Source of the DNA: Escherichia phage vB_EcoM_DE17
Strand: one strand, 5' to 3'
Length of the DNA: 64,000 bases
Sequence record: OP595146.1
The position numbers and the translations under genes are program-made. The notes under the pieces are model-generated. The model worked only from the letters and a program-made list of their open reading frames with translations. It made no database searches and was not told the DNA's origin. The stretch's first letter is position 1. The number at the start of each line of letters is the position of its first letter. Shown in pieces: positions 59,079 through 64,000 of this stretch.

Positions 59079-59154
59079 TGGAGAATCCGAAGGGACTCGA
59101 ACCCTTATAAACCTGTTTTGCAGACAGGCACATATCCATTTCTGTCACGGATTC
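59079..59154 (-). tRNA. tRNA-Cys (GCA)
   Basis: Hand fold fits canonical numbering exactly. Anticodon stem CCTGT/ACAGG, loop CTGCAAA, T arm AAGGG-TTCGAGT-CCCTT, CCA encoded. Confidence 0.85.
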
Positions 59155-59158
59155 AAAT

Positions 59159-59251
59159 TGGAGGAAGATACCAGACTTGAACTGGTACACCGATTTCTCA
59201 GCTACTGGCAGTTTAGCAAACTGCTCCCTTACCTTTTAGGGTTAATCTTCC
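59159..59251 (-). tRNA. tRNA-Ser (GCT), type II
   Basis: Acceptor GGAAGAT/ATCTTCC, anticodon stem GCAGT/ACTGC, loop TTGCTAA, long variable arm, T arm ACCAG-TTCAAGT-CTGGT. Confidence 0.8.
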
Positions 59252-59252
59252 A

Positions 59253-59987
59253 TTATTTCTGTAATGCGTTCTTCATTTCTGGTGTTGCAATAGTGTCAAT
59301 TACACCAGTTTTACAAGCATCATCAAACCAGTCTGGTAAGATACCTGCTAAGAACCCATTGATATTCGTTTTAAGGTACTCTGCAATAAGGGCAGCTTCT
59401 TCTTCAATCATCTGCACAACTTCATCTGCATAAGCTGTAATCTTTGAGATACCTTCATTAATCTTACTAACAGCTTGGTTAGCTAAATCAGAAATAGTAT
59501 CAAGACCTTTATCAATAGCATCCTGTAAGTCACTTAATACATCATTAACACCGTCTAGTGCACTGTTAATCGTATCCATAGCTTTTTGACCATACTCTGT
59601 AGCAACACCCATAATACCACTAAATGGTGTACAGCCAACTTGTTCACCTGCTGCACCCATAACATTAGAATAGCCTTTTGCTACCTGCATACGTGAGGAA
59701 AACTCATCAATGGACTTTTGACCATAATCTGTCAGTGTCTTAGTAGTTGATGTAGTGCTTGTCAGACTCGTTGTAAAGCTGTTAAGCAGAACTGTTGTAA
59801 GTCCAGCAGCAACAAGTTTATCTTTTATTGTAGGGTCTGTTACAGAGCTAATAGAGCTTACAAGTGATGTAGAGGCAGCTACGGTTCCACCGAGAACTGC
59901 TGCACCAGTAATAAGGGGATTAGAAAACCCTCTACCGGTTTTTAAGAGATTAAAAATCTCCTTACCTTGTTCTGTCATCTCTTTCAT
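59253..59987 (-). CDS. hypothetical protein embedded in the tRNA array
   Basis: The track ORF extends to 60050 but overlaps tRNA-Phe. The ATG at 59987 (MKEMTEQGK...) has the RBS AAGGTG. Ser/Thr-rich N-terminal part and helical C-terminal part. Confidence 0.6.
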   Translation of the reverse strand: MKEMTEQGKEIFNLLKTGRGFSNPLITGAAVLGGTVAASTSLVSSISSVTDPTIKDKLVAAGLTTVLLNSFTTSLTSTTSTTKTLTDYGQKSIDEFSSRMQVAKGYSNVMGAAGEQVGCTPFSGIMGVATEYGQKAMDTINSALDGVNDVLSDLQDAIDKGLDTISDLANQAVSKINEGISKITAYADEVVQMIEEEAALIAEYLKTNINGFLAGILPDWFDDACKTGVIDTIATPEMKNALQK

Positions 59988-60003
59988 TAAGCACCTTTGG
60001 AAT

Positions 60004-60080
60004 TGGTAGTCCAGTGGGATTTGAACCCTCTTCTCATGTTTTTCAGACACGCGCTTTAACCATATAAGCTACTTGGACTA
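60004..60080 (-). tRNA. tRNA-Phe (GAA), irregular acceptor/D junction
   Basis: Anticodon arm CGTGT-CTGAAAA-ACATG, D arm GCTT/AAGC, perfect acceptor TAGTCCA/TGGACTA. However, there are 4 nt instead of 2 between the acceptor and D stem, and one T-stem mismatch. Confidence 0.6.
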
Positions 60081-60085
60081 TAAAT

Positions 60086-60161
60086 TGGGGTGACCTACGG
60101 GATTTGAACCCGTATAGACCATGTTCACAGCATGGGTCATTACCATTTATGATAAGGCCAC
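60086..60161 (-). tRNA. tRNA-His (GTG)
   Basis: Anticodon arm CCATG-CTGTGAA-CATGG, T arm ACGGG-TTCAAAT-CCCGT, discriminator C, CCA encoded. Confidence 0.85.
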
Positions 60162-60192
60162 ATTTAAGGACTCTCGTAAGAACCCTTAGAAG

Positions 60193-60268
60193 TGGCAGCG
60201 GCATAAGGATTTGAACCTTAATAAGACAGCTTCAGAGACTGCTGCATTGCCAGTTATGCTATACCGCT
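60193..60268 (-). tRNA. tRNA-Gln (CTG)
   Basis: Loop CTCTGAA, D arm GCAT/ATGC, T arm TAAGG-TTCAAAT-CCTTA, discriminator G. Confidence 0.75.
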
Positions 60269-60273
60269 AAATT

Positions 60274-60352
60274 TGGTACTCCATATCGGATTCGAACCGA
60301 TACATAACACAGATTTTAAGTCTGGCCTCTCTGCCAATTGGAGTAATGGAGC
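60274..60352 (-). tRNA. tRNA with anticodon TAA (Leu-type) but short variable region
   Basis: Anticodon arm CCAGA-CTTAAAA-TCTGT, T arm ATCGG-TTCGAAT-CCGAT, acceptor GCTCCAT/ATGGAGT, 7-nt variable loop with no long arm. Confidence 0.55.
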
Positions 60353-60354
60353 AT

Positions 60355-60430
60355 TGGCGGGGGATGTTGGAATTGAACCAACTTCTTCGATTTCAAAGAC
60401 CGAGGTTTTAACCTTGTAAACTAATCCCCT
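60355..60430 (-). tRNA. tRNA-Gln (TTG)
   Basis: Anticodon arm TCGGT-CTTTGAA-ATCGA, D arm GTTT/AAAC, T arm GTTGG-TTCAATT-CCAAC, A1-C72 mismatch, discriminator G. Confidence 0.75.
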
Positions 60431-60438
60431 TTAAATCT

Positions 60439-60996
60439 TTACTTTCTCAGTGGATGAATAAAGAATGCCAACATAACTCTTTCCCTTGAGAATGCTCTTT
60501 CTTCTGGGACAACACTTTTTAGCTTCCATCCAACATAAATTCTCCAGTAGAATTGTTTACCAAAGACTTTAATTGATGGGATAAAAGCGAATAATCCCCA
60601 AGCATTACTGTTCCACATTAGGAGATAACCTGTCTGATTATCTTCAGGGTTAGAACTTACGTTGATATTACCTTTCCACTTAGTAACATCTTTTACATCT
60701 CTTCCTAATACATGGTAAGAGAAGTTATAAGCTTTGTTTCTCCAGAGCCAACCAACTCTCTGCATATAGACACCAAGCTTGCCAATCTTTCTAATCTTAG
60801 CCCATCGTTCGACATGCCCTTTATCACCATCAATTGGGTTGTCATATGTCTCCATCCATCTGAAGCCGAAAGGTAAGTGTCCTTTCTTCTCACTGTAAAA
60901 TGGAACTACAAAAGGTGCTAAGATAACTGCTAAGATTGCTGCAAATGGTTCTAACAAAGCTAAGAAAATCCATGAAGCATACTTCAAATATCTCAT
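60439..60996 (-). CDS. hypothetical membrane protein embedded in the tRNA array
   Basis: 185 aa with a hydrophobic N-terminus (ASWIFLALLEPFAAILAVILAPFVVPF) and a Trp-rich body. Confidence 0.6.
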   Translation of the reverse strand: MRYLKYASWIFLALLEPFAAILAVILAPFVVPFYSEKKGHLPFGFRWMETYDNPIDGDKGHVERWAKIRKIGKLGVYMQRVGWLWRNKAYNFSYHVLGRDVKDVTKWKGNINVSSNPEDNQTGYLLMWNSNAWGLFAFIPSIKVFGKQFYWRIYVGWKLKSVVPEERAFSRERVMLAFFIHPLRK

Positions 60997-62843: not shown

Positions 62844-62858
62844 CAACTTTATTGAAAT

Positions 62859-62934
62859 TGGTACTGGTAGGTGGAATCGAACCACCGATGTTCCCTTATC
62901 AGGGGAGTGTTATAACCTTCTTAACTATACCAGC
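62859..62934 (-). tRNA. tRNA-Ile (GAT)
   Basis: Loop CTGATAA, T arm GGTGG-TTCGATT-CCACC, acceptor GCTGGTA/TACCAGT. Confidence 0.85.
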
Positions 62935-62935
62935 T

Positions 62936-63012
62936 TGGAGGTTCAGATGGGAATCGAACCCACATTCATAGGGCTTATGAAACCCCTGCATTACCTTATC
63001 TGCGACTGAACC
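62936..63012 (-). tRNA. tRNA-Met (CAT), elongator or Ile2-type
   Basis: Loop TTCATAA, G1-C72 paired (not initiator-like), T arm GTGGG-TTCGATT-CCCAT. Confidence 0.75.
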
Positions 63013-63016
63013 ATAT

Positions 63017-63092
63017 TGGTAGAAGTGGAGGGATTCGAACCCATCGCCTGTCAGATTAAAAGTCTGCCGCATCACCATTCTGCTACACTTCC
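63017..63092 (-). tRNA. tRNA-Lys (TTT)
   Basis: Loop CTTTTAA; same bulged T stem GA(T)GGG/CCCTC as Lys(CTT). Confidence 0.7.
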
Positions 63093-63237
63093 ATTAAATC
63101 ATCTTTGTAGATAAGCTACCCAGACTTGCTTAAGGTCTGTAGCGATGTGCATTGTTGGGTTTAAATCTAGAATTTACCCTTTCACCCTTTGTGGTCGCAT
63201 ACTCACAGGTAAGCTTAATAGCTCACCTACAAAGATA

Positions 63238-63381
63238 ATTACCAGACCGTTGTTTATCATCTTAAGTGCTACCATTACACCAACTCGACATCTGCCGAGT
63301 GAAGGAATCGAACCTTCGCCTTTTCTTTACCGGAGAAATAGATTGTTTAAGTTTTGCTGTAAACGGTCTTCTGTAAATTTG
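63238..63381 (-). repeat. stem cassette, copy 1 (carries the permuted tRNA-like insert)
   Basis: Flanks attaccagaccgt (63238-63250) and ttttgctgtaaacggtcttctgtaaatttg (63352-63381) recur at 63875-63887 and 63923-63952. Inner 8-bp pairing AGACCGTT/AACGGTCT. Confidence 0.75.
63265..63338 (-). ncRNA. circularly permuted tRNA-like gene (Thr GGU-like anticodon loop), acceptor closed by a short loop
   Basis: Minus strand 5'-3': TTTCT-CCGGTAA-AGAAA AGGC GAAGG-TTCGATT-CCTTC ACTCGGC A GAT GTCGAGT TG GTGT-AATGGTA-GCAC T. This is positions 27-73, a 3-nt linker, then positions 1-26. Confidence 0.6.
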
Positions 63382-63546
63382 TTGAGCCAGACCAAGTTTA
63401 AATTTTTCAAAATTAAATTGGCTTGAAATTTTAAGTAACTTGCTGAATTTGGTCTTCTGCTCCTTTAAAGAATACTCGTAAGAACTCTTTAAGGGAGGGG
63501 CTAAATAGCCCTCTCAAAACATCATCTTGAAATACTTATTATAATT

Positions 63547-63624
63547 TGGCGGTTACGAAGGGATTTGAACCCTCATCATCTCCCGTGACAGGGGAGTATT
63601 TTAACCAGATTAAACTACATAACC
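63547..63624 (-). tRNA. tRNA-Asp (GTC)
   Basis: Anticodon arm CTCCC-CTGTCAC-GGGAG, T arm GAGGG-TTCAAAT-CCCTT, discriminator G. Confidence 0.85.
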
Positions 63625-63630
63625 TTTATT

Positions 63631-63718
63631 TGGTGTGCCGTGTAGGAGTCGAACCTACCGAGTCTCAATGACAAGGGATTTACAGTCCCCACCGCTACCA
63701 TCTACGGGATAACGACAC
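63631..63718 (-). tRNA. tRNA-Tyr (GTA), type II
   Basis: Anticodon arm GGGGA-CTGTAAA-TCCCT, long variable arm, T arm GTAGG-TTCGACT-CCTAC. Confidence 0.8.
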
Positions 63719-63788
63719 ATTTATTATTCTATTCAGGCTAAGGACTTGCACCTTACAAATCGGTGAGCAATCGCTTCTCTCCTAAATT

Positions 63789-63865
63789 TGGCGGTTAGTC
63801 AGGGATTCGAACCCTGTGCCATTCGCTTAACAGGCGACCGCACATACCTTATGTGCTTCCTAACC
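63789..63865 (-). tRNA. tRNA-Asn (GTT)
   Basis: D arm GCAC/GTGC, loop CTGTTAA, T arm CAGGG-TTCGAAT-CCCTG, discriminator G. Confidence 0.8.
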
Positions 63866-63874
63866 ATGTTTAGT

Positions 63875-63952
63875 ATTACCAGACCGTATCTTTTCAATTT
63901 TTCCGCTAAAAATTTCATTAAATTTTGCTGTAAACGGTCTTCTGTAAATTTG
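63875..63952 (-). repeat. stem cassette, copy 2 (no tRNA-like insert)
   Basis: Same flanks as copy 1 (13/13 and 30/30 nt). The 7-bp stem AGACCGT/ACGGTCT encloses only AT-rich filler. Confidence 0.7.
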
Positions 63953-64000
63953 GAGGCGGGTGCAGGAGTCGAACCTGCCGATACCATGCTAATGAGACAT
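63951..64000 (-). tRNA. partial tRNA (CAT anticodon), 5' part beyond window
   Basis: CCA, acceptor ACCCGCC, T arm GCAGG-TTCGACT-CCTGC, loop CTCATTA. Truncated by the window edge. Confidence 0.6.

Follow-up and report, generated by a model that had tools for sequence, protein, structure and literature searches.

A tmRNA-like RNA gene within the tRNA array

The DNA analysed here is a stretch of 64,000 nucleotides (nt) from Escherichia phage vB_EcoM_DE17 (OP595146.1), hereafter the window, which ends in a dense array of minus-strand tRNA genes (59079–64000). One spacer of this array, 62523–62858, holds an element that resembles transfer-messenger RNA (tmRNA, SsrA). Judged from sequence, the minus strand of 62523–62843 forms a gene of its own, encoding a tmRNA-derived RNA of about 170–290 nt with its core at 62558–62724. 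The array alone contributes nothing new; the spacer RNA is its overlooked content. The initial annotation had pointed to an internal promoter and to long structured spacers, and both were seen correctly, whereas their forming a tmRNA-derived gene was not recognised.

The gene is preceded by a sigma70-type promoter, TTGACA-17-TATAGT (62843–62815, minus strand, match in 11 of 12 positions), which would serve the tmRNA-like RNA as well as the tRNAs downstream. It is the best promoter match in the region, where promoter-like sites overall occur at chance level (12 found, 13.1 expected). Since homologous promoters are conserved in relatives, where they abut the 5' seed of the RNA, we take it as real, in line with the promoter proposed earlier at 62815–62843.

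All parts of the RNA are encoded on the minus strand. The predicted transcript would begin with a 5' extension specific to Felixounavirus (62710–62814), a long hairpin with 27-nt arms seen as inverted repeat I2 and on folding; this extension is absent in tootiki, Maleficent and Roscha1. It overlaps a 5' arm (62694–62720) that, by sequence comparison with E. coli ssrA, is antisense to nt 81–106 of the host tmRNA and includes the seed UAGUUUUCGU (62711–62720), the complement of tmRNA nt 97–106. The resume context AUAAAU and the tag open reading frame (ORF) occupy 62644–62682, as read in 12 loci and in accordance with a sub-threshold Rfam tmRNA match. The stop codon of the tag lies in the loop of a hairpin similar to helix 5 of tmRNA (62629–62658). 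Pairing in the outer stem of this hairpin is 94%, and each of its 4 pairs shows compensatory changes. In the pseudoknot PK2 (62591–62628) the loop CCAA of a UGAGG/CCUCA hairpin pairs with a downstream UUGG. Both stems covary, the second stem S2 being found as CCAA/UUGG, CCGA/UCGG, CCAG/CUGG, GUCG/CGAC and CUAG/CUAG. The pseudoknot PK3 (62562–62595) is built from S1 CGUAC/GUAUG and S2 GCCCAC/GUGGGC with the conserved loop AUUAAUAA; S1 is 95% paired and covaries, one pair being CG 17 times, GC 8 times and UA 3 times. A closing 16-bp hairpin (62527–62561; −18.5 kcal/mol, z −4.8), which belongs to repeat family D14, completes the element.

The structure was tested with an alignment of 31 diverse representatives (alignment A1). 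RNAalifold returned 8 pairs only from the raw MAFFT alignment. Because variable stems were misaligned there, the structure was written by hand and tested by pair counts. With the hand-written structure 84% of the cells are paired, compared to at most 48% when the partners are slid by 1–3 columns, and double-change cells number 121 versus 41 in shuffles, none of 500 shuffles reaching 121. Compensatory changes occur in 20 of the 28 pairs, and at least 90% pairing is seen in the outer stem of the helix-5-like hairpin, in either stem of PK2 and in S1 of PK3. A covariance model derived from this alignment finds exactly one copy in the window (62558–62724) and one per Ounavirinae locus, and it weakly matches genuine E. 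coli ssrA at about nt 80–187 (15.7 bits, E 0.02). The 290-nt transcript predicted for the spacer folds with z = −6.4. Scores with the Rfam tmRNA models all stay below threshold (given in brackets): 15.9 bits with RF00023 (47) for the window, 20.9–27.8 bits with the permuted model (47) for relatives, and 23.5 bits with the beta model (84).

The tag reading frame

Read on the minus strand, every copy contains AAAGAUAAAU followed directly by GCA AAC GAY, with a stop exactly ten codons on, in the hairpin loop. In the window the frame (62676–62644) is GCA AAC GAC AAU GUU UUU CUG GCA GUA GCU UGA, or ANDNVFLAVA*; the tag of E. coli tmRNA is ANDENYALAA for comparison. The reading of resume context and tag ORF is based on 12 independent phage loci. 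When ORFs were searched without any constraint on length or 5' motif, all 38 unique ORFs comprised ten codons. They encode 21 different tags of the form AN[DE]xxx[LRK]xxA, with mostly hydrophobic residues at positions 5–10 and Ala or Val at codon 9. Codon 10 is always GCN, its third position having an entropy of 1.6 bits and the first two none. Taipeivirus P01 and Kuttervirus STML-13-1 specify the same tag via three synonymous changes (GCA/GCU, AAC/AAU and AAU/AAC). Conservation of the tag frame looks to be of the coding type, as if the frame were translated.

Within the resume context AUAAAU before GCA, A(−4) is invariant and U(−5) is present in at least 90% of the 31 representatives. Their counterparts A86 and U85 set the tag frame on E. 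coli tmRNA (PMC2481249). No in-frame start codon was found in the tag frame. An alternative AUG frame overlapping the resume codon was rejected, as its peptides of 5–9 amino acids are not conserved in length and are absent in Kuttervirus. The window tag ends in Val-Ala and has no terminal Ala-Ala. Since terminal Ala-Ala proved necessary for potent ClpXP degrons in a C-terminal screen in E. coli (bioRxiv 10.1101/2024.01.29.576913), the window tag may be a weak degron.

Distribution and conservation

Sensitive blastn with 61800–63600 retrieved tRNAs of many phages and, in unrelated phages, about 95–125 nt of the spacer 62523–62858. The latter matches are unannotated and lie in Taipeivirus P01, Kuttervirus STML-13-1, Nonanavirus PJ16 and the Klebsiella phages ZCKP2 and 1825-KPC53. 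When the query was cut down to the element alone, 626 phage records representing at least 8 lineages were obtained, unannotated in the records examined. Carriers are Felixounavirus, Mooglevirus, Kolesnikvirus, Ackermannviridae, the T5-like Cyrano, the N4-like Ithacavirus, Nonanavirus, the lambdoid HK633 and several siphovirus groups. The element was also found in 350 of 5426 complete E. coli genomes (about 6%), at 141 chromosomal prophage sites and 219 plasmid sites. The plasmids measure about 95–115 kb and are presumably phage-plasmids; the E. coli sites among the listed matches are essentially unannotated ('none' or hypothetical protein). Pattern scans of IMG/VR contributed at least 85 further unique copies. 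About 28 early IMG/VR matches (tags ANEQANET etc.) were discarded as coding-sequence artefacts without downstream structure. Among the 120 matches listed from a family-pattern scan of genome contigs, 5 are genuine and most are due to chance; the three genuine ones that could be assigned belong to Enterobacterales.

The element often heads a tRNA operon, with tRNA-Arg(UCU) as a frequent but not universal neighbour. It also occurs outside tRNA arrays, in HK633 between PR' and the holin gene and in ZCKP2 and PJ16 antisense between structural genes. Among Felixounaviruses the core is 98.8% conserved, compared to 93–96% for the flanking ORFs; all spacers within the genus are 94–99% conserved. A strong promoter ends 5–11 nt 5' of the seed in 31 of 104 unique copies and in Mooglevirus, Kolesnikvirus, ZCKP2 and PJ16. 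Neither Rfam 15 nor the annotations of the records examined include the element, and the literature accessible to us, from which subscription journals are largely missing, yielded no description of a template-only, antisense-armed form of tmRNA. The RNA is apparently undescribed, and it would be a template-only relative of tmRNA.

In lambdoid and siphovirus members (L006 1150–1720, minus strand; L007 2216–3170, plus strand; L008 2700–3712, plus strand) the core continues 3' for 200–300 nt as structured RNA. One domain of this continuation is shaped like a cloverleaf and resembles Rfam STnc100/PasD (UGGUGAAU...CACCA). The continuation of ZCKP2 has at its end a tRNA-Arg(UCU) without acceptor stem (Rfam tRNA positions 8–63, 39 bits). 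Several unannotated tRNA-like pieces without ARAGORN call flank the element on the minus strand in Kuttervirus STML-13-1 (L004) and Taipeivirus P01 (L002). They consist of T-arm, acceptor strand and (A)CCA with large internal insertions, e.g. GCCGTTATATC...GGGTTCGACTCCCTGAAACGGCACCA.

Similarity of the 5' arm to the complement of host tmRNA

The target sequence for this comparison was ssrA of the E. coli K-12 genome. No other part of the family is as conserved as the seed UAGUUUUCGU, and it matches the reverse complement of K-12 tmRNA nt 97–106 exactly; these nucleotides fall in tag codons 3–6 (GAC GAA AAC UAC). When the 5' domain was aligned with the tmRNA reverse complement by Smith-Waterman, 27 of 35 representatives scored above all 300 dinucleotide shuffles (window: 29 versus a shuffle maximum of 25), while the sense orientation gave background scores. 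The antisense alignments map to nt 68–106 in the lambdoid, Kuttervirus and siphovirus group and to nt 80/81–106 in the Ounavirinae group. For the window, TAGTTTTCGTTGCG-TAGCGTCTATTTT is aligned against TAGTTTTCGT--CGTTTGCGACTATTTT, an alignment that spans the A-rich linker, the resume codon and six codons. When the seed was left out of the search criteria, all 85 genuine members recovered proved to carry it, 71 exactly and 14 with one change.

Pairing of the arm is predicted to be stronger with host tmRNA than with the equivalent segment of the RNA itself in 35 of 35 representatives, with means of −31.7 and −15.2 kcal/mol, respectively (window: −19.5 and −10.4 kcal/mol). With RNAcofold, lambdoid, Kuttervirus and siphovirus members reach net values of −10 to −16 kcal/mol, better than controls. 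The phage tags depart from the host tag exactly at codons 3–6. Because these codons vary among lineages while the arm stays constant, the arm appears to be held by an invariant external target and not by intramolecular pairing.

Search for a tRNA-like domain

Neither for the window nor for 45 related loci did ARAGORN call a tmRNA. No conserved tRNA-like domain in cis was detected by ARAGORN, by a T-arm scan or by inspection of the flanks in 8 lineages, and about one third of the copies have no T-arm motif within 900 nt downstream. Neither an acceptor strand upstream of the 5' motif nor a separate acceptor piece conserved across lineages, upstream or downstream, was found. As the promoter ends 5–11 nt before the 5' motif in the copies mentioned above, the upstream sequence cannot supply an acceptor strand there. 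The predicted RNA keeps those parts of tmRNA that form a readable template, and the parts needed to enter the ribosome are lacking.

The tRNA array and its surroundings

From 58800 to 64000 the window is 95–98% identical end to end to genomes of Felixounavirus (Felix O1-like, Ounavirinae). Examples are KEP3, pinkbiff, JH2 and CL1, from a group of phages of E. coli, Salmonella and Shigella. The order of the tRNAs is that of the annotated arrays in pinkbiff, tootiki, SP116 and GEC_vB_BS, with 95–98% identity over 5.2 kb, and in Felixounavirus relatives the minus-strand cluster lies upstream of a small ORF and the terminase and portal genes. Because the same annotated cluster is present in these relatives, the array is a known feature of a known genus: by sequence comparison, the interval is the conserved, already annotated tRNA operon of Felixounavirus, with 24 predicted tRNA genes inside the window. 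It is of the kind known as tRNA gene clusters from Felix O1-like (Ounavirinae), T5 and T4 phages; the annotated Felixounavirus arrays comprise 22–26 co-oriented tRNAs adjoining the terminase and portal genes.

The tRNAs themselves are no different from those in annotated Felixounavirus arrays, whereas the window copy is a mosaic in which Ala, Thr, Ile, Leu(UAG) and Asp cassettes are swapped compared to close relatives. Mosaic cassettes are located at 61456–61862, 62446–62522, 62859–62934 and 63547–63624. The window tRNA-Ala shares 78% identity with other Felixounaviruses and 98.7% with Mooglevirus Maleficent; the Thr, Leu(UAG), Arg(UCU), Ile and Asp genes are likewise swapped, with neighbours 98–100% identical. 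HNH endonuclease genes occupy these spacers in relatives, and the window has none. The spacers were also considered as decayed homing-endonuclease genes, and tblastn with the HNH proteins of tootiki and Maleficent detected no remnant in the window.

ARAGORN predicts 23 tRNAs between 59079 and 63865, all on the minus strand: Cys, Ser (two), Phe, His, Gln (two), Leu (three), Arg (two), Val, Thr, Gly, Ala, Lys (two), Ile, Met, Asp, Tyr and Asn. With the Rfam tRNA model 22 of the 23 reach the gathering score, tRNA-Tyr giving a weak Sec-type match only. The last genes of the operon are tRNA-Cys(GCA) (59079–59154) and tRNA-Ser(GCU) (59159–59251), both supported by ARAGORN and Rfam, as are tRNA-Phe, His, Gln(CUG), Leu(UAA) and Gln(UUG) at 60004–60430. 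The remaining assignments are ARAGORN calls. tRNA-Arg(ACG) (61016–61091), a gene that some Felixounaviruses do not have, is followed by Leu(CAA) and Val(UAC) at 61206–61359 and by Thr(UGU), Gly(UCC), Ala(UGC), Lys(CUU) and Leu(UAG) at 61456–61862. tRNA-Ser(UGA) lies at 62118–62207, tRNA-Arg(UCU), the first tRNA 3' of the tmRNA-like RNA, at 62446–62522, and Ile(GAU), Met(CAU) and Lys(UUU) at 62859–63092. Asp (63547–63624), Tyr (63631–63718) and Asn (63789–63865) complete the set. At 63951–64000, also on the minus strand, the window end cuts a Met-type gene of which the 3' part is recognised from its sequence. The full-length homologue is annotated as tRNA-Met in pinkbiff, where the array runs on with Glu and Pro.

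The initial annotation had listed about 25 minus-strand tRNA genes by hand folding. With the 23 ARAGORN calls and the cut Met gene, 24 of the 25 folds stand, including the three Leu-anticodon tRNAs (UAA, CAA and UAG) and the second Met-type tRNA, which is real and truncated by the window end. Checked with tRNA software, only the 'Trp-like' fold on the minus strand at 62221–62303 was rejected: ARAGORN makes no call, Rfam gives 23 bits (fold z −2.0), the anticodon loop has 9 nt or else reads CUCCAAA with a C-A closing mismatch, and the T-arm is abnormal. This element combines a 7-bp acceptor stem and an encoded GCCA with a 9-nt 'anticodon' loop in which CCA occurs, and it is 95–99% conserved in Felixounaviruses; a normal tRNA-Trp is present in the related Erwinia phage Roscha1. 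A degenerate tRNA is the best reading of the element, which could be a pseudogene or an unusual tRNA. The proposed CCA followed by an AATT(T) junction is borne out as well, with CCA encoded by 22 of 23 tRNAs and mostly followed by AAT or ATT; the exception is tRNA-Ser(UGA).

Both tandem terminators suggested 3' of tRNA-Cys fold as strong hairpins followed by U6. Terminator 1 (58982–59041) has a long hairpin of −25.4 kcal/mol (z −4.9), and terminator 2 (58899–58916) is formed by GACGGT..ACCGTC (z −3.4), both on the minus strand. The embedded ORFs turned out to be three, all minus-strand members of conserved PHROG families of unknown function. These encode 244 amino acids (59253–59987; PHROG 2114, E 5e-112; 'putative membrane protein' in the annotation of relatives), 185 amino acids (60439–60996; PHROG 2143, E 3e-81) and 35 amino acids (61082–61189; PHROG 13848). 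The 35-residue ORF has a good ribosome-binding site and overlaps the 5' end of tRNA-Arg(ACG) by the first 10 nt of that gene; in relatives both are present or absent together. What is neither tRNA nor ORF amounts to 1680 of 4922 nt (34%), close to the one third estimated before.

The longest spacer (63093–63546, minus strand) contains a tRNA remnant or minihelix at 63300–63350 (Rfam tRNA, 22 bits), a 35-nt copy (63347–63381) of the sequence 3' of the cut tRNA-Met (63918–63952) and a long-range 22-nt inverted repeat pairing 63097–63118 with 63219–63240. It looks like a record of duplication and decay. A stable hairpin is present in three intergenic copies on the minus strand (60163–60187, 62527–62561 and, in the longest spacer, 63460–63500) with the loop UUCUUACGAG or, in one copy, UUCUAAGAG. 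Similar TTCTTACGAG hairpins occur in Erwinia phage Roscha1 and in the two Ackermannviridae loci L002 and L004. This recurrent hairpin may be a processing or protein-binding signal. Another minus-strand hairpin (61864–61953), whose 26-nt arms are complementary at 85%, is part of the 255-nt spacer that separates tRNA-Ser(UGA) from tRNA-Leu(UAG); for this one, neither an Rfam match nor a homologue beyond Ounavirinae was found.

Codon usage and anticodon loops

Codon usage of 30 long ORFs of the window was compared with that of 28 long E. coli K-12 ORFs, a small host sample. Codons that are Watson-Crick cognate to the phage anticodons have a mean log2 ratio of +0.25 versus −0.58 for the others (Mann-Whitney p = 0.012), and are thus relatively enriched. 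AGA is enriched 4.6-fold in the phage ORFs, and UCA, ACA, GUA, CUA, GCA and UUA are also used more than in K-12. The comparison supports that the tRNAs would mainly supply codons used more by the AT-rich phage than by its host.

Classic targets of anticodon nucleases are tRNA-Lys (PrrC and PARIS), tRNA-Arg (colicin D) and the Tyr, Asn, Asp and His tRNAs (colicin E5). For 17 of the 23 anticodons, the anticodon stem-loops were compared with K-12 isoacceptors. The 7-nt loop equals that of K-12 in 10 cases (Lys UUU, Arg ACG, Arg UCU, Asn, Tyr, Asp, Ile, Gly, Thr and Val) and differs at positions 32 and/or 38 in the other 7 (both Gln, His, Met, Leu UAG, Ala and Ser GCU). All anticodon stems differ from K-12, and overall tRNA identity is 46–82%. 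That phage tRNAs are insurance against such nucleases is an idea already published (PMC10264068), and a comparison of anticodon loops, as suggested in the initial annotation, was used there too; for most of the classic targets it reveals no loop change in the present phage. The present set includes the same isoacceptors as the phage tRNAs proposed there to escape cleavage, Lys, Arg, Gln, Asn, Tyr, His and Asp, whereas the loops of Lys, both Arg, Asn, Tyr and Asp are host-identical here and only those of Gln and His differ (positions 32 and 38). Of the two roles considered in the initial annotation, codon supplementation is supported, whereas escape through the anticodon loop receives no specific support. 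Because all anticodon stems differ, so that escape via stem determinants is conceivable, the anti-nuclease idea is unsupported rather than refuted.

Interpretation of the tmRNA-like RNA

Our tentative reading, to which we give somewhat less than an even chance, is that the tmRNA-like RNA works together with the SsrA of the host. Its 5' seed and arm would anneal to the single-stranded template region of host SsrA. This annealing would mask the host tag template and at the same time tether the phage template, the tag ORF, to the alanine-charged tRNA-like domain of the host. In infected cells, trans-translation would then rescue and release ribosomes while appending a phage-defined tag, in the present case one without the terminal Ala-Ala needed by E. 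coli ClpXP. Extended to the whole family, a statement we make with slightly more reserve, the widespread RNAs of enterobacterial phages and prophages may be bimolecular, cross-genome tmRNAs, in which the Ala-charged tRNA-like domain comes from the host and the tag is chosen by the virus. Rare-codon stalls are a known source of SsrA tagging. The association with tRNA operons, often with tRNA-Arg(UCU), suggests a translation-maintenance module.

Several observations weigh against such a joint tmRNA. We know of no precedent for a template that is joined to a tRNA-like domain by an intermolecular helix alone. The arm was compared with the tmRNA of K-12 alone. For the subgroup of the window the hybridisation energies are not significant: the RNAduplex z-score is −2.1, and the RNAcofold net value of the window, −5.2 kcal/mol, compares with a mean of −3.8 and a minimum of −8.0 kcal/mol for shuffled arms; for the Mooglevirus copy (Maleficent) it is 0.0. 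For the window, folding predicts that the 5' extension sequesters the seed in the hairpin with 27-nt arms, and in the minimum-energy fold part of the arm is paired with the resume region of the same RNA. About 70% of the copies have no seed-adjacent promoter. An IMG/VR search for a Pseudomonas-type seed (TAGTTGTCGT...) gave 3 chance matches without tag frame and no member, so that covariation of the arm between host and phage could not be shown. Finally, the tags of many members do end in Ala-Ala (LMAA, MVAA, LAAA), and avoidance of a degron is therefore not the general benefit.

A role as pure anti-tmRNA regulator appears unlikely, but is the main rival and deserves serious consideration. As an antisense or sponge RNA it would block the SsrA template or direct its cleavage and shut down tagging of phage proteins, and the tmRNA-like 3' part, never translated, would be either an inherited scaffold or a mimic binding S1 or other tmRNA partners. 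The exact 10-nt seed near the 5' end, the antisense match to nt 68/80–106 and the preference for host over self agree with this role, as does the promoter that makes the seed the 5' end of the putative transcript in 31 of 104 copies, similar to many seed-first small RNAs (sRNAs). No unprecedented step on the ribosome is required, and a phage tmRNA fragment limited to the tRNA-like domain (DS6A) is known to inhibit tmRNA (PMC4131195). A regulator of this kind does not, however, explain the invariant ten codons, the third-position variation and the identical tags encoded synonymously, nor the invariant A(−4) and a stop codon that keeps its place in the hairpin loop in lineages whose mean column identity is about 67%. 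The conservation of resume context, helix 5 and pseudoknots and the weak homology of the covariance model to genuine ssrA would also fit a stand-alone decoy that does not pair with SsrA and titrates S1, RNase R, Hfq, the SmpB tail or a tmRNA-recognising defence protein. As the universally conserved arm and seed and the codon-type conservation would then be unexplained, we regard a decoy as improbable.

If the tRNA-like domain was simply overlooked, the RNA could be an ordinary phage tmRNA, two-piece or divergent. Parallels would be the tmRNAs of mycobacteriophages, Bacillus phage G and huge phages (PMC4131195, PMC7162821). The weak Rfam matches to the permuted, beta and alpha tmRNA models and the tRNA-like oddities nearby (62221–62303 and 63300–63350) would also fit. 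We nevertheless judge it very improbable: ARAGORN finds no tmRNA in 46 sequences, there is no acceptor strand before the 5' motif, transcription is predicted to start at the motif in several lineages, about one third of the copies have no T-arm within 900 nt, and the nearby tRNA-like remnants are specific to Ounavirinae and without G3:U70. Still more improbable, in our estimate, is a functionless spacer, i.e. a decaying captured ssrA fragment or an operon processing RNA. The interval would then be only a tRNA array that supplements codons and possibly serves as a reserve against anticodon nucleases. The array is a mosaic of tRNA remnants, repeats and homing-endonuclease insertions, so that junk accumulates there; all Felixounavirus spacers are 94–99% conserved, and conservation at that depth therefore discriminates little; and the codon usage fits supplementation. 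Against this stand the recurrence of the element in prophages and in 8 or more unrelated phage lineages, frequently away from tRNA arrays, the compensatory changes in four helices and the element's own promoter; for the nuclease reserve, the anticodon loops of Lys, Arg, Asn, Tyr and Asp give no support.

Relation to known RNAs

Similar to one-piece tmRNA (SsrA, RF00023), the phage RNA has a GCA resume codon after U(−5)A(−4), a ten-codon AND... tag with a hydrophobic, Ala-rich end, a stop codon in the helix-5 loop and H-type pseudoknots after the ORF. In contrast to one-piece tmRNA it has no acceptor stem, G3:U70, T-arm or CCA, and adds an arm antisense to host tmRNA. It contains two pseudoknots after the ORF, compared to three after and one before it in canonical tmRNA. 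Its score below the Rfam gathering threshold (15.9 versus 47 bits) and its invisibility to ARAGORN are further differences. Two base-paired RNAs would share the function, as they do in the two-piece (permuted) tmRNAs known from alphaproteobacteria, cyanobacteria and some phages. In those, one gene gives two pieces, each with half a tRNA-like domain; here the second piece would be a complete host tmRNA, paired through its template region.

Surveys of tmRNA list phage ssrA only in mycobacteriophages and Bacillus phage G, besides the DS6A form that consists of the tRNA-like domain only (PMC4131195, PMC11915505); huge phages carry tmRNAs as well (PMC7162821). The mycobacteriophage DS6A RNA is likewise a phage-encoded partial tmRNA, and it is reported to inhibit the endogenous tmRNA (PMC4131195, PMC11915505). 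Whereas DS6A keeps only the tRNA-like domain, the RNA described here keeps only template and pseudoknots, plus the antisense arm. With the lambdoid late-region prophage RNAs AgvB/AsxR and STnc100/PasD (bioRxiv 10.64898/2026.05.13.724894) it shares a short conserved seed and, in lambdoid members, the location between Q/PR' and the lysis genes, and the long forms of the element run into an STnc100-like domain. Unlike these, its predicted target is a stable translation RNA and not an sRNA or mRNA, and a conserved tag frame is present.

If our reading is true, the RNA would be the first template-only tmRNA derivative and the complement of the phage form that has only the tRNA-like domain, and its mechanism would be new. 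Infected or induced cells would then be expected to contain C-terminal AANDNVFLAVA or AANEEMYLAVA tags, and RNA-interactome data to show SsrA chimeras. Trans-translation would be a direct target of phages of E. coli, Salmonella, Klebsiella and Erwinia, including the therapeutic genera Felixounavirus and Kuttervirus. Hundreds of deposited phage genomes and about 6% of the complete E. coli genomes carry the element without annotation, and it illustrates that 'spacers' of phage tRNA operons can be genes.

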